Positions 1,444 through 23,802 of a stretch of 25,422 nt of DNA are shown one piece after another; the first letter of the stretch is position 1, and each line of letters begins with the position of its first letter. The notes under the pieces are model-generated. The model did not search any database and was not told where the DNA came from. It saw only the letters and a program-made list of their open reading frames with translations. The stretch is taken from UHGV virus genome UHGV-0247665. One strand, 5' to 3'. The stretch comes from a virus. Position numbers and translations under genes: made by a program.

Positions 1444-1547
1444 GTTAAATCTCCAGATAGTCGCAGCACCCGTTGCGCCGCATATCTGGTTATTCTATTA
1501 CCTGAAAAACCACATATGGATAGAAAGACTGTAAATACGAATAGATA

Positions 1548-1562
1548 TTACCTTTCGGGTAA
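1548..1562. promoter_or_regulatory. TTACC-N5-GGTAA palindromic motif copy (ATTACC-tttcg-GGTAAT)
   Basis: In the divergent intergenic region between the tailspike start (1443) and the LexA box/85-aa gene; followed by TTGCAA. Confidence 0.5.
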
Positions 1563-1601
1563 TTTGCAAAACGTGCTGGATAGCAAACAAATTATTTGAT
1601 A

Positions 1602-1617
1602 CTGTATAAATATACAG
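1602..1617 (+). promoter_or_regulatory. LexA (SOS) box, CTGT-N8-ACAG
   Basis: 20-mer TACTGTATAAATATACAGTT (about 1600-1619) matches the E. coli LexA consensus TACTGTATATATATACAGTA at 18 of 20 positions with both CTGT and ACAG arms intact. It is preceded by TTGATA (1596-1601) and lies 21 nt upstream of the ATG at 1639. Confidence 0.75.
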
Positions 1618-1638
1618 TTATTACATGGAGAAGATAAG

Positions 1639-1896
1639 ATGCAGCAGTATCACTATCCACTGGAAGACGGATTTACCGAAAGGATTCACACGCCGGGAGG
1701 CGTCAGGTCACTGGTGGAGGGATCGCACTTGATGAAATTACTCCGGGATCTCGATAAGGATGGATTTAATGTCGATGGCCCACTTGCCGAACTGACTGCA
1801 CTGATTAACTACGTCACCAGCTCACAGATGTCTATGCAGGATCTACAAACACATCTCGACTATTGTGCCGAACAATTACGAAAACAAACCAGATAA
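1639..1896 (+). CDS. Small protein (85 aa) homologous to the C-terminal domain of the downstream antirepressor; candidate SOS-controlled antirepressor or modulator
   Basis: ORF track 1639..1896; GGAG at 1627-1630, 8 nt before the ATG. Its sequence (HTPGGVRSLVEGSHLMKLLRDLDKDGFNVDGPLAELT...DLQTHLDY) aligns with antirepressor residues HSPSGVLGLTENSLLMNLLNQLQEDGHDVSGAAAELT...DIQTHAEY at roughly 35-40% identity by eye. Confidence 0.7.
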   Translation: MQQYHYPLEDGFTERIHTPGGVRSLVEGSHLMKLLRDLDKDGFNVDGPLAELTALINYVTSSQMSMQDLQTHLDYCAEQLRKQTR

Positions 1897-1927
1897 GGTT
1901 TGCAATTACCAAATGGAGTGCTTATAT

Positions 1928-1942
1928 TTACCTTTGCGGTAA
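1928..1942. promoter_or_regulatory. TTACC-N5-GGTAA palindromic motif copy (TTTACC-tttgc-GGTAAA)
   Basis: Between the 85-aa ORF stop and the antirepressor leader; followed by TTTACA. Confidence 0.5.
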
Positions 1943-1977
1943 ATTTACATCGCACTCCTCTTGTGCCATAGTAATCG

Positions 1978-1999
1978 GGCACTGGCAAAATCCAGTGCC
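1978..1999 (+). other. Perfect 8-bp inverted repeat stem-loop (GGCACTGG-caaaat-CCAGTGCC) in the antirepressor leader
   Basis: Read directly from the sequence; no U-run follows, so it is not a classical terminator. Confidence 0.5.
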
Positions 2000-2035
2000 G
2001 GGATTGGCGTCACGAGTTACTACAGAGGCACATAT

Positions 2036-2055
2036 GCCGCATAAGCGGTTTTTTT
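2036..2055 (+). terminator. Weak intrinsic terminator-like hairpin (gCCGC-ataa-GCGGt followed by TTTTTTT)
   Basis: 4-5 bp stem followed by seven T residues, 140 nt downstream of the 85-aa ORF and about 150 nt upstream of the antirepressor start. Confidence 0.35.
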
Positions 2056-2208
2056 ATGTGTAAAGCGCACCTATTCTATGGTGGGCTGTGTGGGGGCACC
2101 GAAAGGTGCGCCGGGTCCTTTGTAGCCGGTTACGCCAACCCTGCACAGTTCACCACCAACCGATTGGCGTCGGTAGTGGTGATTAACCTAACTACAAAGG
2201 TGATCGCT

Positions 2209-2895
2209 ATGACTGCTAACGTAACCCCATCTGTTTTTCATTTTGAATCAGAAGCAACCATTCGAGCCATTGTTATTGATGGAAATCCTTGGTTTGTTGC
2301 CAAAGACGTTATTAAAGCTCTTCAACTGACAAACCCCACTATGTCAATAAAATCTCTTGATGATGATGAAAGGGCTAAATTTAACTTAGGCCGTCAAGGC
2401 GAAACCAATATTATCAACGAGTCAGGCCTCTACACACTGTTCCTCCGCTGCCGCGATGCGGTGACACCAGGCACTACCCCCTACCGCTTTCGTAAATGGG
2501 TTACAGGTGAGGTTCTTCCTCAGATCCGCCGCACCGGAAGCTACATTAAAAACTCGCTCCCGCAGGAAGAACGCATAAAGATGGTTGCCGACCAGGTAGC
2601 CAACGCCACGGCGTCAGCAGTAATGCAGGCGATGAAGATAGAGAACAAAACCTACAGCGCCCCGCTGAAGCCCGGCTACCGCAGTTTGATTCACTCGCCG
2701 TCTGGTGTTCTCGGCCTGACGGAGAACTCACTGCTGATGAATCTGCTGAACCAGTTACAGGAAGACGGGCACGACGTATCGGGCGCGGCGGCGGAACTGA
2801 CCACCATGTTCTGCTACATCGTCGGTGTGAGTAAATGCCTGCGTGATATCCAGACCCACGCGGAATACATCAACGACAAGGCAGGGGTCTTCTGA
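2209..2895 (+). CDS. Phage antirepressor with N-terminal Bro-N domain (228 aa from ATG 2209)
   Basis: In frame within ORF track 2056..2895. The ATG at 2209 is preceded by AAAGGTGA. N-terminus SVFHFESEATIRAIVIDGNPWFVAKDVIKAL...NIINESGLYTLFLRCRD...FRKWVTGEVLPQIRRTGSY matches the Bro-N consensus. The sequence upstream of 2209 within the tracked ORF is structured leader, not coding. Confidence 0.85.
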   Translation: MTANVTPSVFHFESEATIRAIVIDGNPWFVAKDVIKALQLTNPTMSIKSLDDDERAKFNLGRQGETNIINESGLYTLFLRCRDAVTPGTTPYRFRKWVTGEVLPQIRRTGSYIKNSLPQEERIKMVADQVANATASAVMQAMKIENKTYSAPLKPGYRSLIHSPSGVLGLTENSLLMNLLNQLQEDGHDVSGAAAELTTMFCYIVGVSKCLRDIQTHAEYINDKAGVF

Positions 2896-2904
2896 CAGAA
2901 CGGC

Positions 2905-2931
2905 GGCACAGGGATGTGCCTTTAAATAATT
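2905..2931 (+). terminator. Intrinsic terminator after the antirepressor gene (GGCACA-GGGA-TGTGCC then TTTAAATAATT)
   Basis: 6-bp GC-rich stem with a 4-nt loop and a T/A-rich tail, starting 10 nt after the stop at 2893-2895. Confidence 0.5.
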
Positions 2932-2961
2932 CTGTACAGATTGCAGGTGAATAGCGTACTA

Positions 2962-2976
2962 TTACCCCAAAGGTAA
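2962..2976. promoter_or_regulatory. TTACC-N5-GGTAA palindromic motif copy (ACTATTACC-ccaaa-GGTAAG)
   Basis: About 120 nt upstream of the two-gene cassette start; followed by TTGATT. Confidence 0.5.
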
Positions 2977-3093
2977 GAAAGTTGATTTGTAACATTTTAG
3001 TTTGTAGTTACCGTGATGGTTTTGCTGCAGAAAGTTAACTAGTCAAAATCACACCGTATGTAAGTCACGTCTGTTCCCGTATGGGAGGATGAT

Positions 3094-3312
3094 ATGTTTA
3101 AATTTGATATGCAACTCAACCAAAACTATGCCTCTTTTTACCATCCAGAAACTGGTAAAGCTGTTTTCGTTGACTCTTTCGATAATGAAGAATTTGATAT
3201 CAGAATTGGGACCCTACGCCAAAGTAAGCATGTTGCTACTGTACGTGCATCCAATGATGATGAATTAAATCAAAAAATAAGTGAGGCGACCTCCCGTTAT
3301 CTATGTCTATAA
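3094..3312 (+). CDS. Hypothetical protein (72 aa), first gene of an AT-rich two-gene cassette
   Basis: ORF track 3094..3312; strong SD GGGAGG 5 nt before the ATG. Local GC is well below the flanking phage DNA. No recognisable family. Confidence 0.6.
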   Translation: MFKFDMQLNQNYASFYHPETGKAVFVDSFDNEEFDIRIGTLRQSKHVATVRASNDDELNQKISEATSRYLCL

Positions 3313-3680
3313 CAGAACAACAACTCATTGATCTTGAGGATGAGATTAACGAGATCTTGCAAGAAGATGCGGCAAGAATTCACTTTTCATTTCACGCAGC
3401 ATATGAACGCCTGAACGACGAGAGGAACAAACCGCCAATTACTCTTGCTGAGCTTGAAGATGTGTTTAAATCGTTTATATCTGCACATCTGCAGACTGTT
3501 TTGGATTTTGCTGAAGGTACAACTTTCACCATAAAGTGCAACAAAAGCGCCCTTCATTTTCCTTGCGCCATTGTACACGAAAGAGAGTTTGGGAAAACGT
3601 GGGTTATCCAAAACGTCATTACAGCCATGAGGAAAGTGGGATTCAAGTCTAAAGATTCTATTATCCTCGAAGTTAATTAA
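3303..3680 (+). CDS. Hypothetical acidic protein (125 aa), second gene of the cassette, translationally coupled
   Basis: ORF track 3303..3680. Its ATG at 3303 overlaps the upstream stop at 3310-3312 (ATGTCTATAA) with no independent SD in range. Followed directly by a terminator. Confidence 0.65.
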   Translation: MSITEQQLIDLEDEINEILQEDAARIHFSFHAAYERLNDERNKPPITLAELEDVFKSFISAHLQTVLDFAEGTTFTIKCNKSALHFPCAIVHEREFGKTWVIQNVITAMRKVGFKSKDSIILEVN

Positions 3681-3701
3681 GCCCGCACTGAGGGCTTTTT
3701 T
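3679..3701 (+). terminator. Intrinsic terminator (AAGCCC-gcactga-GGGCTT then TTTT)
   Basis: 6-bp stem with a 7-nt loop and a U-run immediately after the TAA at 3678-3680. Confidence 0.6.
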
Positions 3702-3773
3702 ATGGACGAAACAAAAGTCAGTGCTACACTCATTGACGCCACATTGAGGTGGCTTATAGATGGAAATTTCACA

Positions 3774-3935
3774 ATGAAAAAAGCATTTGCTGCACTGTTC
3801 GTTTTGTTGTCTCTGGTAGCTTCAACTCAGGCCTTTGCCGGTCGTTGTCAGCACGACAGCGACACTGCTGCTGACGGCTCCCGCTGCGGTGGGCGTTCTG
3901 CGGATTCCCGCCCGGGTGGCGGTGGCATTCGTTAA
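3774..3935 (+). CDS. Small secreted protein (53 aa precursor; Sec-type signal peptide, about 31-aa Gly/Arg-rich mature part with two Cys)
   Basis: Internal ATG of ORF track 3702..3935. MKKAFAALFVLLSLVASTQAFA is a canonical signal peptide with an AxA cleavage motif; the mature part is GRCQHDSDTAADGSRCGGRSADSRPGGGGIR. Possible promoter TTGACG (3733-3738) and TATAGA (3755-3760). The SD is weak. Confidence 0.5.
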   Translation: MKKAFAALFVLLSLVASTQAFAGRCQHDSDTAADGSRCGGRSADSRPGGGGIR

Positions 3936-3958
3936 AAACAAGGCCGCGAAAGCGGCCT
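3931..3958 (-). terminator. Intrinsic terminator for the minus-strand lipoprotein gene (7-bp GC stem with GNRA-type loop, U-run on the minus strand)
   Basis: AGGCCGC-GAAA-GCGGCCT at 3941-3958. On the minus strand it is followed by TTGTTTTTAAC. It sits between the convergent genes ending at 3935 (+) and 3967 (-). Confidence 0.55.
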
Positions 3959-3970
3959 GTGACATGTCAC
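3959..3970. repeat. 12-bp perfect palindrome GTGACATGTCAC (copy 1)
   Basis: Exact match; contains the TGA stop of the lipoprotein gene. Confidence 0.6.
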
Positions 3971-4347
3971 GCAACGCAATTATTACCGCGCCATGTAACA
4001 TTTTTAATAATCTTATCAGCACCAAACTCAACGTAAACAGAGCAACTGAAATGGAGTGTATAACCGCCATCAGTTGTTGCGTATGTGTTTGAATATATAG
4101 TATTACCAATTAGATTAGACGTAGTATTATACGTTGTGGTTTGTGGTACGTTATAACTACCAGAGCTTGAGTAAACATACACTCTGTTTCCATCTGGAGA
4201 TGTAAGCTCTCCCTGAGGATACCCCCACTGCTGAACCATTGCGTCTATACTCTGCCCGCGCCACGTAAGCATATTTCTTTCAAACTGTGCAGCTGACTGG
4301 CATCCAACGAGAAGCATAAATCCAAAAATCAAAAATACTTTTCTCAT
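3967..4347 (-). CDS. Outer-membrane lipoprotein (126 aa); candidate lysogenic-conversion or superinfection-exclusion protein
   Basis: In frame within ORF track 3967..4383. The ATG at 4347 is preceded by GGGGG with a 5-nt spacer. N-terminus MRKVFLIFGFMLLVGCQSA carries a lipobox (LLVGC). The mature part is Ser/Thr/Asn/Tyr-rich. The stop codon lies inside the GTGACATGTCAC palindrome. Confidence 0.75.
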   Translation of the reverse strand: MRKVFLIFGFMLLVGCQSAAQFERNMLTWRGQSIDAMVQQWGYPQGELTSPDGNRVYVYSSSGSYNVPQTTTYNTTSNLIGNTIYSNTYATTDGGYTLHFSCSVYVEFGADKIIKNVTWRGNNCVA

Positions 4348-4432
4348 AATTACCCCTATCATGGAAAAACAGCACCAATCCACAAATTAACTAGTTATTT
4401 TATTATTCTTCCGAACAATACAATTCCGAATA

Positions 4433-4555
4433 CTACAAAGCCGAACCATGCCGCTGCACGCAACAGAGATTCCAATTGAAACCCATTTTTATCAAAATGT
4501 ATGAATAGCATAAAAACGCTGCACATATTAGTACAATAAAAGTTATTTGAACCAT
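4433..4555 (-). CDS. Small hydrophobic membrane peptide (about 40 aa), not in the ORF track
   Basis: Tandem ATGs at 4558 and 4555 (minus) lie 2 and 5 nt after the SD AAAGGAG, which itself directly follows the TAA of the 824-aa gene. Reading frame MMVQITFIVLICAAFLCYSYILIKMGFNWNLCCVQRHGSAL*. It is in a different frame from ORF-track entry 4395..4583, which lacks an SD. Confidence 0.45.
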   Translation of the reverse strand: MVQITFIVLICAAFLCYSYILIKMGFNWNLCCVQRHGSAL

Positions 4556-4566
4556 CATATCTCCTT

Positions 4567-7041
4567 TTATTGCGGAGTGACATCCTGTGGTCGCCACCAG
4601 TATGTCTGGTTAAACTCTTTCTTCGAACGTTGCTCCATTTTACGCAAATAGCCTGGTGAAAAATACTCCTGCATCTGGTTAAAGATCATGTGATCGAGAG
4701 CCGCCTTCAAGTACCAGAGATTCGCACCAGGCATCAAACCTTTCCCCAGCTTCACCAGATCACCACCAGTCTGCTCACTCTTCCCTTCCACAGCATTTAA
4801 CGGTATGCCCTGAGCAATCTTCACTACGTCATCAACCAGACCAGCTACCGGGCCAAGCATCGACGCCAGCGCGCCGCTTCCGTACCTAGTGTGATCTGAC
4901 AATAAAAAGTCACCGTAAAGGCCAAGACCACCACCTTTCAGTAGAGCACCAAGCCAGAATTTTGCGGCATCTTCTCCTGTCATCTCTCGAGGATTACGAC
5001 CAGACGCAAGGTCGTTAAGTTGCTGCGACAAAGCGCCAAGAATGGTCGTACTGGCAATAAACGTCGCAATATATGCCGCACGCCCACCAGCAGACGGCAT
5101 ACCCATAGCGCGTGACCAGTGACGCATAACAACCGAGATAGGGAACGATTTAAACAGGAAAACACTTCTCGTTAATTCACCTTTCCATGTTCCACGCTGA
5201 ATACCAGAACCGGTTATCAGTTGCTCACGTGCTCCCGGTGTAATAACAGCCATATCAACTTCTTCAGTTACGGCACCGAGCAGTTTACGCATTGCCTCAA
5301 ATTTCACGCGTTCAGGCTCACCAAGATGTTTAACTGCTGAATCAGAGATACGCATAATGCTTTCCGGTGTCAGCATCGTATTATTACCGTTCCCCCAGTC
5401 CTCCTGTTTCGCCAGCTTCCATACGCTCCAGTCTGTGTCAGTAATCCCTTTGCTTTTCAGGATACGAAAATCAGAGTCATCGAGGCTACGAAGGTCTGGT
5501 GTCCGTGACACTACTTCTCCCAGGCTTCCCATCATGGTTACGCCATAGGCGCGCTTGTGCGCATCTGACCATGCTGTAAGCCCACTGGCACGCATTACCG
5601 CCGTTGCCGCCCAACGAGACACTGACGGCCCCATATTATCCATCGCCCAGCGGTTAACGCTGCCAAGTAGAGATTCCATCGCCAGACCAGCGCGGCGCGC
5701 CCGCGCAAGTTCTGTACGGTTCGTTGGGTCCATAGCTTCAAGCTGGTTGCGGAATAACTGGTTCATTGGAAGGTTGGTAACCTTCGCAGACAGATACATG
5801 GTTCCAAGATCAGAGAACGATGACAGCAACGCGGATCCGAGTCTGCTGGCAACCAGCCAGTTGCGGATATTGTCAGACCATCGCGCGATGTGCGGATTCG
5901 CTACAGGCTGTGTCTTTCCGGAAATAAAGTTGTACAGATTCTCTGTGTTGTTCGCCAGCCGCTCGACTTTACCGGTTTTACTCGGGTTAGCTGTTGCCGT
6001 TTCTGCCTTCACCTGATCAAGAAGAGAGCGGAAAACATGATCGGGGTTTGGGCCATATGTTTCCACCAGTGCAATATCTTTACTGATACCTTCCAGGTGA
6101 CCGACCATGATTTCCCATAGAGAGCGATCGCCATAAAGTTGCTGATATTGCAGATAGGAATCTGCATCTTTGAAATGTATCTGTCGTGATGCATTACCAC
6201 GGTTAGCACGTGCGCCGGAAATTCGCATTCCGGTATCAGTAAGCTTATTCAGCCCACCAGTAGCGATCGTGTTATAAGCCTCTCCAAGAAATGAAGACAA
6301 CTCGGCATCGTTCATCAGTTGTCCATCGGCTCGGATATAATATTTGCGATCCAGCTTACCTATAACATCGCTAACCCACTTATCCTTTGATACTGCCCCA
6401 ACCTTTTCCATAGAATGATGTTGAGGGATCCCCCAGTTTTCGAGATAGCCAATGTCCCCACCAGCATCATTAAACCGGCGGCGCAGCAGCTCTGTAACTT
6501 CTCTCCACGCCTTAGCACCGTTTCTTGCTTTAGCATTGCCAGTATTTTGCCCCCGCATTTCATATACCAGGTCACGTACGCCCGCTTCATCTTCAAACAG
6601 ACCAAAAAAGCGAGGATCAACTGCTTCGAATGCCTCCTGCAATTGACTCAATGCATAATCACGGGTGGCTTTTGTTCTGGATTCAACAGAGAGGAAATTA
6701 GATTTACCGTCTGCATTAAAAGCTATAGTACGGTTAAGAGCGCCAAGTTTCCCATCAGCCCCTTGATAGCTATTGATAAATTTATCCAATCTCTGACGCG
6801 CGGCTATAGTGAGAGCCACACGACGTTTCTTTAATGCCGCTTCTCGCTGTAATTCTTCAGATGCCAATTGTGCTGCTCGATATAGCCGCTCTGATTCGGA
6901 AAGTTGTCGCCACGACATAGGGTCATCACGAGCAATGGAGCGCATATTTCGATAAATGCGGTCTTCAATGTTCTGTATTTCTCGCGCCGTTAACATGCGC
7001 TGCGCCGCCTGCTGAACCGCTTGTATACATTCCTGTCTCAT
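4567..7041 (-). CDS. Internal virion / ejection protein (824 aa)
   Basis: ORF track. Last large gene of the minus-strand core-protein block, with a Gly-rich hydrophobic C-terminal region typical of membrane-inserting ejection proteins. Functional analogue of T7 gp14-16 by position and size only. Confidence 0.75.
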   Translation of the reverse strand: MRQECIQAVQQAAQRMLTAREIQNIEDRIYRNMRSIARDDPMSWRQLSESERLYRAAQLASEELQREAALKKRRVALTIAARQRLDKFINSYQGADGKLGALNRTIAFNADGKSNFLSVESRTKATRDYALSQLQEAFEAVDPRFFGLFEDEAGVRDLVYEMRGQNTGNAKARNGAKAWREVTELLRRRFNDAGGDIGYLENWGIPQHHSMEKVGAVSKDKWVSDVIGKLDRKYYIRADGQLMNDAELSSFLGEAYNTIATGGLNKLTDTGMRISGARANRGNASRQIHFKDADSYLQYQQLYGDRSLWEIMVGHLEGISKDIALVETYGPNPDHVFRSLLDQVKAETATANPSKTGKVERLANNTENLYNFISGKTQPVANPHIARWSDNIRNWLVASRLGSALLSSFSDLGTMYLSAKVTNLPMNQLFRNQLEAMDPTNRTELARARRAGLAMESLLGSVNRWAMDNMGPSVSRWAATAVMRASGLTAWSDAHKRAYGVTMMGSLGEVVSRTPDLRSLDDSDFRILKSKGITDTDWSVWKLAKQEDWGNGNNTMLTPESIMRISDSAVKHLGEPERVKFEAMRKLLGAVTEEVDMAVITPGAREQLITGSGIQRGTWKGELTRSVFLFKSFPISVVMRHWSRAMGMPSAGGRAAYIATFIASTTILGALSQQLNDLASGRNPREMTGEDAAKFWLGALLKGGGLGLYGDFLLSDHTRYGSGALASMLGPVAGLVDDVVKIAQGIPLNAVEGKSEQTGGDLVKLGKGLMPGANLWYLKAALDHMIFNQMQEYFSPGYLRKMEQRSKKEFNQTYWWRPQDVTPQ

Positions 7042-20642: not shown

Positions 20643-20657
20643 TTACCTTTCAGGTAA
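20643..20657. promoter_or_regulatory. TTACC-N5-GGTAA palindromic motif copy (ATTACC-tttca-GGTAAG)
   Basis: Intergenic, between the 68-aa/portal gene start and the tRNA; a TTGACA hexamer lies at 20621-20626. Confidence 0.5.
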
Positions 20658-20979: not shown

Positions 20980-21056
20980 GTGGCATTAGCTCAGTTGGAC
21001 AGAGCAACCGCCTTCTAAGCGGTTGGTCGCAGGTTCGAATCCTGCATGCCACGCCA
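20980..21056 (+). tRNA. tRNA-Arg (anticodon UCU), 77 nt with encoded CCA
   Basis: Folded by hand: 7-bp acceptor stem GTGGCAT/ATGCCAC, D-arm, anticodon stem ACCGC/GCGGT with loop CTTCTAA (U33, anticodon TCT, A37), T-arm GCAGG-TTCGAAT-CCTGC, discriminator G, CCA. Close to the E. coli argU-type tRNA. Confidence 0.92.
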
Positions 21057-23177: not shown

Positions 23178-23770
23178 TGATTACCATCCTGACGTTCTTT
23201 GAGTCGCTTCCTGGCTGCTGCTATGCGATCAGCAATTGTCACATTCACATTAACATCCAGACGTTCTTTGAACGCGTTGACATCAACATGCTTACCAATC
23301 AGCTCAAGGTTCTTCACCTTGTCAGGCCATTTAATTTTTTTGAGGATTGTCTCTATCGAATCCTCGTTCATGTTCATGATGGTCGATGACAGATCAAAGC
23401 CACTAAGCGTAGTGCGCCAGATTTTCGGCCACTCACGGATTGGTTTAAGGCTCCCATCGTCGTTGAGGATGTCGATCACGTCCATCTGGTCGATCTGCAC
23501 CAGGCGCATGAGAACGTAATCAGCACTGACGCGCATTCGTTTGTTGCGCTCCTCCATCAACTCGGCAATCCGTTTTTGAATGCGTTCATCGCGCATCATG
23601 ACACTGGCTTTAACTGCCGCTGTATTTGGGGAGAATCCTGCGTTAATCGCTGCCTGAGTCTGGTTTTCAGGCGTTTTGATGTATGACTGGCAATAAGCCT
23701 CCTGCATTGCTGTTAGTGGCTTAAATTGCGTTGATTTGCGTTTATAGGTTTTAGGTTCAGCAGGCATCAT
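23174..23770 (-). CDS. Terminase small subunit (about 199 aa from ATG 23770)
   Basis: ORF track 23174..23848 uses a TTG start. I prefer the tandem ATGs at 23770 and 23767, preceded by GGTGG, because a terminator hairpin and motif cluster occupy 23771-23848. The LTAMQEAYCQSYIKTPENQTQAAINAGFSPNTAAVKA region resembles small-terminase (Terminase_2-type) N-terminal domains. Confidence 0.75.
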   Translation of the reverse strand: MMPAEPKTYKRKSTQFKPLTAMQEAYCQSYIKTPENQTQAAINAGFSPNTAAVKASVMMRDERIQKRIAELMEERNKRMRVSADYVLMRLVQIDQMDVIDILNDDGSLKPIREWPKIWRTTLSGFDLSSTIMNMNEDSIETILKKIKWPDKVKNLELIGKHVDVNAFKERLDVNVNVTIADRIAAARKRLKERQDGNQ

Positions 23771-23787
23771 AACCACCGTGGTAATAG

Positions 23788-23802
23788 TTACCGTTTTGGT
23801 AA
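23788..23802. promoter_or_regulatory. TTACC-N5-GGTAA palindromic motif copy within a cluster of GGTAATAGT repeats
   Basis: GGTAATAGTTACC-gtttt-GGTAATAGTACC lies 20-40 nt upstream of the small terminase ATG. Confidence 0.5.

Follow-up and report, generated by a model that had tools for sequence, protein, structure and literature searches.

A small overlapping gene pair as exchangeable cargo of an epsilon15-like Escherichia coli prophage, possibly a toxin-antidote-type module

The 25,422-nt stretch of UHGV virus genome UHGV-0247665 analyzed here (the window) is part of an epsilon15/TL-2011b-like Escherichia coli prophage. Its plus strand carries two small overlapping open reading frames (ORFs): ORF-A, of 72 amino acids (aa), at 3094..3312 and ORF-B, of 125 aa, at 3303..3680. 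Both encode acidic proteins with an isoelectric point (pI) of 5.2. The feature is real, conserved and outside any described family. The best-supported reading, possible though short of probable, is a toxin-antidote-type bicistron of two new families that rides as cargo in a slot wired to the phage repressor; ORF-B is the proposed effector or toxin, and ORF-A its proposed antidote or partner. The query stretch was 100% identical to Escherichia phage Phi05_1387 B and E. coli Es_ST80, and 98.9% identical to enterotoxigenic E. coli (ETEC) H10407. An earlier note, made from the letters of the sequence, had described an AT-rich two-gene cassette with overlapping genes, a candidate moron. An AT-rich, translationally coupled moron that is horizontally exchangeable was supported.

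Conservation of the ORF-A and ORF-B pair

ORF-B starts at an ATG (3303) 7 nt 5' of the ORF-A stop codon (3310-3312), and the two genes overlap by 10 nt. ORF-A is preceded by a GGAGG Shine-Dalgarno sequence (3084..3088, plus strand), 5 nt 5' of its ATG, that is kept in the homologous Klebsiella and Pantoea loci. ORF-B has no Shine-Dalgarno sequence of its own and is therefore translationally coupled to ORF-A. The coupled ORFs, strong Shine-Dalgarno sequence and 10-nt start/stop overlap given in the earlier note were thus confirmed from the sequence and the ORF list.

Close homologues of A and B were found in Escherichia, Klebsiella, Enterobacter, Salmonella and Pantoea, with one further ORF-A homologue in Chromobacterium. 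Genomic look-ups placed A directly upstream of B in every case. In five Klebsiella prophage variants the pair followed Bro-N, as it does here (the protein is listed in 3112 blocks of the index), and a Chromobacterium siphovirus prophage contained the pair between a Rha/ANT antirepressor and the tape-measure gene. The other settings were chromosomal islets of Pantoea allii and Pantoea sp. EA-12, amid housekeeping genes (transporters and acetyltransferases); a 405-kb metagenome contig, likewise between housekeeping genes and beside purC (B just 34% identical); a Vibrio chromosome, inside an array with eight 128-nt repeat copies that looks like an integron (superintegron) array; and Aeromonas plasmid pS44-1, just after the integron cassette qnrVC6. 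The pair was conserved as a unit across prophages, islets, the integron-like array and the plasmid.

The A/B junction was an overlap of 4 nt in Klebsiella and Pantoea allii, 1 nt in the metagenome contig (L014), 41 nt in Pantoea EA-12 and 35 nt in Vibrio, and a gap of 4 nt in Chromobacterium. This is coupling of the toxin-antitoxin (TA) type, in which small, adjacent, co-oriented genes have start and stop codons that overlap or abut. Identities of A and B to the window proteins were 69/64, 71/74, 66/65 and 48/34%, and the two diverged in step. Annotators had left ORF-B uncalled in the Chromobacterium prophage (L012 5215-5592) and ORF-A uncalled in the Vibrio array (L017 ~3780-4035), so the pair is under-counted in public annotations.

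Both ORFs are under strong purifying selection. The proportion of nonsynonymous differences (pN) was 0.16-0.21 for ORF-A and 0.14-0.24 for ORF-B, each against a proportion of synonymous differences (pS) of ~0.8. For the pair as a whole pN was 0.14-0.24 (<=0.44 in the most distant pair) against a pS of ~0.8, with synonymous sites saturated. Decay of the pair was asymmetric. Intact A stood beside broken B at three independent loci, with a frameshift (L025), a truncation (L026/27) and an IS5 insertion (L023), and both genes were frameshifted on a Pseudomonas silvicola megaplasmid. No intact B without A was found among ~12 independent loci. The distribution was thus of the TA type, patchy and mobile, with the toxin candidate never intact without its partner in that set of loci. 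One protein, P0098, was considered as a Rosetta-stone fusion of A and B and was rejected as the frameshifted pseudogene pair of P. silvicola.

ORF-A matched phrog_14630 at 9.5e-50 and has a close family of 30 clusters with the invariant motif VDSFDN-EF. Its AlphaFold 2 model was confident (predicted local distance difference test, pLDDT, 90.9) and showed four beta-strands followed by a C-terminal helix (beta4-alpha). No Pfam match and no significant structural neighbor of this model were found. ORF-B matched phrog_14518 at 5.6e-78, with a close family of 67 clusters. Scans of the PHROGs gave only two matching PHROGs per protein, neither with an assigned function.

The wider B family is large. 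Among 1.84 billion representatives searched with a profile, 689 were relatives at E<=0.001, and a second profile search gave 956 clusters, nearly all from marine or other metagenomes and without a name or Pfam domain (family representatives are counted at 50% identity). The full B domain comprises 120 residues. In the top 149 representatives it stood alone in 43, was N-terminal in 45, C-terminal in 43 and internal in 18. Among 105 multidomain carriers the partner domains were CTP_transf_like (20), DUF5824 (15) and Zeta_toxin/AAA_33 (7); further fusion partners were DUF5661, DUF3008, PAP2, HNH, GNAT and a tRNA-ligase phosphodiesterase (CPD) domain. The B domain therefore recurs in large multidomain phage proteins beside effector enzymes, which is the pattern of a polyvalent-protein domain. 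Contigs with stand-alone B members resembled lytic phages and contained genes for ribonucleotide reductase (RNR), ThyX and a T4-type spanin. In proteins of ~1000 aa the domain order was CTP_transf_like, DUF5824, Zeta_toxin/AAA_33 and B domain. One 1244-aa protein contained the B-like domain twice (in the set that includes P0113, P0145 and P0167), and a 5704-aa protein had nine weak partial B-domain matches.

Seven residues were invariant across the B family (H31, R36, R41, E50, T107, R110 and F114) and six were near-invariant (N38, D39, N42, P87, M109 and K111). Conservation of the polar residues across 689 distant relatives suggests that they mark an active or ligand-binding site in ORF-B. 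ORF-A-like sequences were found in none of the lytic-phage loci, multidomain proteins or other slot cargos examined. Their absence from the phage loci and proteins with a B domain indicates that ORF-A is a partner acquired by one B clade.

The cargo slot and its operator-like palindrome

The slot was aligned between the window and four prophages with other cargos: TL-2011b, KC-Dl-1, SCZE5 and MS 196-1. On the left, identity across the cargo variants covered the Bro-N stop codon, a hairpin, a promoter-like element and a TTACC-N5-GGTAA palindrome, and ended at window position ~2976. On the right, identity restarted exactly at the stem of a terminator, at window position ~3679. These breaks define an exchangeable cargo at ~2977-3678 between regulatory walls that belong to the phage. 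The cargo (2977..3678, plus strand; bounds from the alignments) contains a 117-nt leader, ORF-A and ORF-B. The whole stretch was present in 4 of 5426 complete E. coli genomes and its two flanks in 461. GC content was 0.389 for the cargo and 0.492 for the window, which agrees with the low GC reported in the earlier note, and just 2.4% of 700-nt windows were equally low. Window regions 1-1600 and 3967-4583 were as AT-rich as the cargo.

The same slot contained different genes in the other prophages. In TL-2011b the cargo was a 59-aa gene overlapping a YafO-family toxin gene (gp45/gp44), in MS 196-1 a 108-aa gene with YafO, in SCZE5 a pair of 62 and 110 aa, and in KC-Dl-1 a lone 210-aa gene. The coordinates of these cargos were 4144-4843 in L002, 2644-3276 in L003, 1714-2515 and 2877-3702 in L004, and 2603-3125 in L005. 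MS 196-1 has a second tandem slot. Across slots there were two different pairs of a small gene with a YafO-family toxin, a 108-aa and DUF2335 pair, the 62- and 110-aa pair and the 210-aa single gene, and most of these alternative cargos had no Pfam match. Cargos of neighboring slots included YafO, DUF2335 and DUF4760.

The cargo has the features of a moron: deviant GC, brackets of promoter and terminator, and replacement in relatives, with five alternative cargos between identical flanks. Morons of lambdoid phages, as described by Hendrix and colleagues, are reportedly units of promoter, gene and terminator inserted between conserved genes. Like these, the cargo has a GC content below its surroundings, stands between a promoter-like element and a terminator, and shows presence/absence and replacement in close relatives. 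Unlike these, the promoter-operator and terminator are conserved phage sequence and the coding cargo alone is swapped. The slot promoter also differs in having what looks like an operator of the phage-repressor type and in probably not being constitutive in the lysogen.

The palindrome at the left wall of the slot, TTACCCCAAAGGTAA (2962-2976), takes in the end of the -10 element as well as the +1 position and was kept in all cargo variants. Six copies with at most one mismatch were found in the window (1548-1562, 1928-1942, 2962-2976, 20643-20657, 23770-23784 and 23788-23802) against 0.48 expected. Three of them precede an 85-aa ORF, a unit of isrK and C4 RNAs with Bro-N, and the cargo; a fourth is at 20643, and the last two form a tandem pair immediately 5' of the gene for the terminase small subunit. 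In the complete TL-2011b genome (L028) 14 sites were found against 0.82 expected. Two sites stood on each side of the helix-turn-helix (HTH) repressor-like gene gp10, at the OL and OR positions, and others were ahead of the terminase gene, Bro-N and the slot. Every palindrome site comes directly after a -10-like hexamer, for example TATATT ending at 1928 and TACTAT ending at 2962; at the former, the promoter scan called TTGCAA-17-TATATT. Judged by these copies, the palindrome is a phage-wide operator-like motif and is not specific to the cassette. It would be an operator of a CI/Cro-type immunity repressor of the phage, to judge by its placement. If such a repressor does bind there, the cargo would be silent or weakly expressed in the lysogen and switched on by induction or infection. 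Cargo expression is probably under repressor control.

The promoter-like element of the slot is a remnant in the window (2941..2962, plus strand), with a -35-like TTGCAG (2941-2946), a -10-like TACTAT (2957-2962) and a spacer of 10 nt. In the alignment, TTGCAG-N17-TACTAT was intact in TL-2011b and KC-Dl-1. A 7-bp spacer deletion (at 2946/2947; N17 to N10) was common to the window, ETEC H10407 and SCZE5, and may weaken cargo expression. An alternative pairing is TGTACA (2933-2938) with TACTAT at a spacer of 18. At the equivalent place Klebsiella prophages have TTGCAA-17-TATATT followed by TTACCTCAACGGTAC, ahead of the A-B pair. The promoter scan called no sigma-70-like promoter in 2900-3094, a range that includes the slot promoter and the cargo leader, and a -35-like hexamer belonging to the cassette was thus unsupported. 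A plausible cargo promoter is located in the conserved phage flank, and in this phage cargo expression may depend on read-through from the Bro-N promoter.

A hairpin, GGCACA-GGGA-TGTGCC (2905..2920, plus strand), lies just 3' of the Bro-N stop codon in the conserved left flank. This weak or leaky terminator was unchanged in all five aligned prophages; its T run is interrupted, and for that reason the terminator scan passed over it. The right wall of the slot, common to all cargo variants, is an intrinsic terminator (3679..3702, plus strand) found by the terminator scan and as inverted repeat I1. It consists of AAGCCC-GCACTGA-GGGCTT (hairpin 3679-3697) followed by TTTTTA. The earlier note had assigned both the palindrome and the terminator to the cassette itself. 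Both elements are present; the alignments and the six palindrome copies assign the former to the conserved phage wall, and the hairpin with its T run is the terminator of the slot, shared by every cargo. The pair did not prove to be a self-contained cassette; all cargos share one conserved phage scaffold, made up of the terminator, the operator-like palindrome and the probable promoter.

Toxin-antidote, phage effector and other readings of the pair

As a toxin-antidote-type module, the pair would work as follows. ORF-A, the small acidic beta4-alpha protein, would be made first and in at least equal amount to ORF-B, because the ribosome-binding site is on ORF-A only and ORF-B starts within the last codons of ORF-A. 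ORF-A would then physically bind and neutralize ORF-B, the putative effector, which has a conserved polar site (H31, R36, N38-D39, R41-N42, E50, T107 and R110-K111) and a proposed biochemical activity and toxicity. The unit would ride passively in the swap slot, 3' of the Bro-N antirepressor gene that C4 and isrK control, and the slot would provide a promoter, a terminator and an operator for the phage HTH repressor. The pair would probably be transcribed when the prophage is induced or a cell is infected, or through read-through that starts at the antirepressor promoter, and not constitutively in the lysogen. The YafO pairs in the same slot, the mobile distribution of the pair and its decay argue for a TA-like module; retention of A with loss of B is the pattern that a toxin and its antidote would show.

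Comparison with type II TA systems gave likenesses and differences. As in the TL-2011b gp45/gp44 pair, the genes form a bicistron in which a small upstream gene overlaps a larger downstream gene, in the same slot and with the same promoter-operator and terminator. Also shared are the patchy mobile distribution, including integron-like arrays and plasmids, and an upstream gene that outlives the downstream gene. Unlike type II TA systems, A and B have no sequence or profile similarity to YafO or to Pfam toxin or antitoxin families, ORF-B is acidic, and toxicity of ORF-B is only putative. ORF-A also lacks a DNA-binding domain of the ribbon-helix-helix, HTH, AbrB or Phd type, and the operator ahead of the pair is phage sequence outside the cargo. 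The TA function guessed in the earlier note is thus consistent with the same-slot pairs, the distribution and the decay, while recognized toxin and DNA-binding antitoxin families were not matched.

Several further results weigh against a toxin-antidote pair. Searches of Pfam, NCBIfam and PADLOC matched neither protein to a family of toxins, antitoxins or defence proteins, and profile searches of PDB sequences with the A and B families gave chance-level matches only (Sse1 and DbpA), which bears out the absence of a recognized family claimed earlier. Comparison of the B family with the same-slot YafO toxins by hhalign was negative (probability 0.6%), so that ORF-B was placed in no recognized toxin superfamily by Pfam, NCBIfam, PADLOC or hhalign against YafO. 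The ORF-B model was poor (pLDDT 54; shallow alignment), with two helices followed by four strands, and a fold search with it is uninformative. The acidic pI of ORF-B (5.2) is unlike that of typical RNase toxins. Most B members are in lytic marine phage contigs or in large multidomain proteins, with no A-like partner, and the distribution of the family fits an effector that benefits the phage at least as well as a toxin. The decay tally of ~12 independent loci is a small sample. Finally, to judge by the operator-like site, the pair would be little expressed in the lysogen, and this weakens the case for a role in addiction or lysogen defence.

A known fold was also sought for ORF-B. DUF4258 is an uncharacterized BECR-fold family of the RelE/ParE type (PMC11980606). 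ORF-B is similar to RelE/ParE BECR toxins in its size class (~100-130 aa) and in the helices followed by a small antiparallel sheet of its low-confidence model. It differs in that HMMER gave no match to DUF4258 or BECR Pfam models for ORF-B or 34 relatives at E<=10. The H-x4-R-x4-R-x4-I-T-x2-E-L and C-terminal V-I-T-x-M-R-K patterns of ORF-B recall what we take to be the DUF4258 signature; this is a lead only, and with no HMMER link ORF-B was not placed in that family. No Pfam family recurred among the 34 diverse B-domain sequences (scan at E<=10): DUF4258 and other RelE-like models gave no match and MuF_C a single one. No sequence or profile match to the RelE/ParE BECR families, DUF4258 and YafO included, was found.

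The distribution of the B family suggests the main rival reading, in which the pair helps the phage during induction or infection and is neither an addiction nor an abortive-infection module. ORF-B would be a host-takeover or counter-defence domain acting on host nucleic acid, nucleotide or protein, and ORF-A a specificity, chaperone or timing partner. This is rather unlikely on the evidence as a whole, though it accounts for several results. The family is mostly from marine metagenome and lytic-phage contigs with RNR, ThyX and T4-type spanin genes, its fusions to nucleotide-handling and other effector domains are the architecture of large multi-effector phage proteins, and the pair follows an antirepressor gene in three phage types. 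Lytic expression is also implied by the palindrome at the slot promoter, a motif that in TL-2011b stands on both sides of the HTH repressor gene and ahead of the terminase gene. Domains of such large polyvalent or multi-effector phage proteins were reportedly described by Iyer, Aravind and colleagues in 2017. Like these, B is found in proteins of 200 to >1200 aa, at either terminus or in the interior, and shares them with zeta-toxin-like kinases, nucleotidyltransferases, HNH and GNAT domains. Unlike these, B is not any named Pfam domain and is here a free-standing 125-aa protein with a dedicated partner; comparison with the named polyvalent Pfam domains (LPD families and MuF_C) gave only two faint MuF_C matches (E ~0.003-0.006), in inconsistent registers and below threshold. 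A role confined to lytic growth is harder to reconcile with the phage-free copies of the pair in Pantoea islets, the Vibrio cassette array and the Aeromonas plasmid, and with the restriction of ORF-A to one B clade and its absence from lytic-phage loci. Nor does it predict that A is retained where B is lost. The toxin-antidote and phage-effector models are compatible: a phage effector domain may have been domesticated with an antidote.

The earlier note had also considered a defence role, and the pair could be an anti-phage system that the lysogen expresses for its own protection, set off when another phage enters and working by abortive infection or superinfection exclusion. Its place in a prophage accessory hotspot with presence/absence polymorphism would fit this, as would the YafO, DUF2335 and DUF4760 cargos of neighboring slots. 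TA pairs also frequently function in defence (PMC11980606). PADLOC-DB 2.0 gave no match at E<=1 for either protein or four neighbors, however, no sensor-like domain was found, and the chromosomal copies stand outside defence islands. What looks like an operator of the immunity repressor overlaps the slot promoter and may keep the genes silent in the lysogen, and the promoter spacer is damaged by the 7-bp deletion. The missing PADLOC match, the lack of a nearby defence island and the operator together make a dedicated role in lysogen protection quite improbable. The anti-defence role that the earlier note also listed could still apply. Two unrelated small phage proteins that are simply co-transcribed, for example antirepressor or lysis-lysogeny regulators, with no toxin-antidote relation, would explain why the pair adjoins Bro-N or Rha/ANT antirepressor genes in E. 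coli, Klebsiella and Chromobacterium prophages and why neither ORF was assigned to a biochemical family. Such an accident is very hard to square with strict co-occurrence and co-divergence in non-phage contexts that have no antirepressor, with conserved translational coupling, and with a B domain common in lytic phages that have no lysogeny circuit, and we give it little credence.

If the toxin-antidote reading is correct, the TA and phage-conflict repertoire would gain one new family of toxins and one of antidotes, and a common but unannotated marine-phage domain would for the first time be open to functional work, in E. coli and Klebsiella. A broader and more doubtful proposal is that B is a large unannotated effector superfamily of at least 689 representatives, used by marine phages either by itself or in fusion with NMNAT-like nucleotidyltransferases and zeta-like kinases, of which ORF-B would be the first bacterial, tractable member, domesticated with the new antidote ORF-A in Enterobacterales, Vibrio and Chromobacterium as a TA/phage-conflict family wired to a prophage repressor. 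The slot, with its repressor-operator promoter, swappable cargo and fixed terminator, is a natural cassette system for finding accessory modules in epsilon15-like prophages, and its Klebsiella version is in thousands of assemblies. Should the pair prove to be ordinary cargo without a phenotype, the regulatory finding still explains how such cargos are controlled. Literature searches on accessions, PHROG identifiers and partner DUFs found no papers.

Neighboring genes and RNAs

The cargo is within an accessory region on the plus strand (1500-3935). On the minus strand, from right to left, are genes for the terminase small and large subunits, portal, major head protein, and tail and internal virion proteins. 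Upstream of the cargo slot is the Bro-N antirepressor-like gene (~2203-2895, plus strand), and 3' of the ORF pair is a gene for a small signal-peptide protein (3774-3935, plus strand).

Rfam found no RNA family within the cassette. Two RNAs were found directly upstream of, and overlapping, the 5' end of the long ORF of the Bro-N gene: an isrK-like Hfq-binding RNA (1979-2055, plus strand; 65.5 bits) and a C4 antisense RNA (2074-2160, plus strand; 79.5 bits). With Bro-N they form an antirepressor control unit of the P1 immI or Gifsy-1 isrK-anrP type, with the promoter TTGCAA-17-TATATT at 1900-1928. The 85-aa ORF (1639-1896, plus strand) has its own operator-bearing promoter and matched phrog_450 (9e-48). 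This PHROG also matched the C-terminal 80 residues of the Bro-N protein, and the ORF is therefore a free-standing copy of the antirepressor C-terminal domain.

An AT-rich gene (GC 0.38) on the minus strand (3967-4383 and 4395-4583) encodes a lipoprotein-like protein of 116-138 aa, phrog_3716. In TL-2011b and KC-Dl-1 the position of the phrog_3716 gene is taken by an arc/ant (P22 immI-like) pair, and it looks like another replaceable accessory spot. A tRNA-Arg gene (anticodon TCT; 20980-21056) is on the plus strand, opposite to the packaging and head genes around it.

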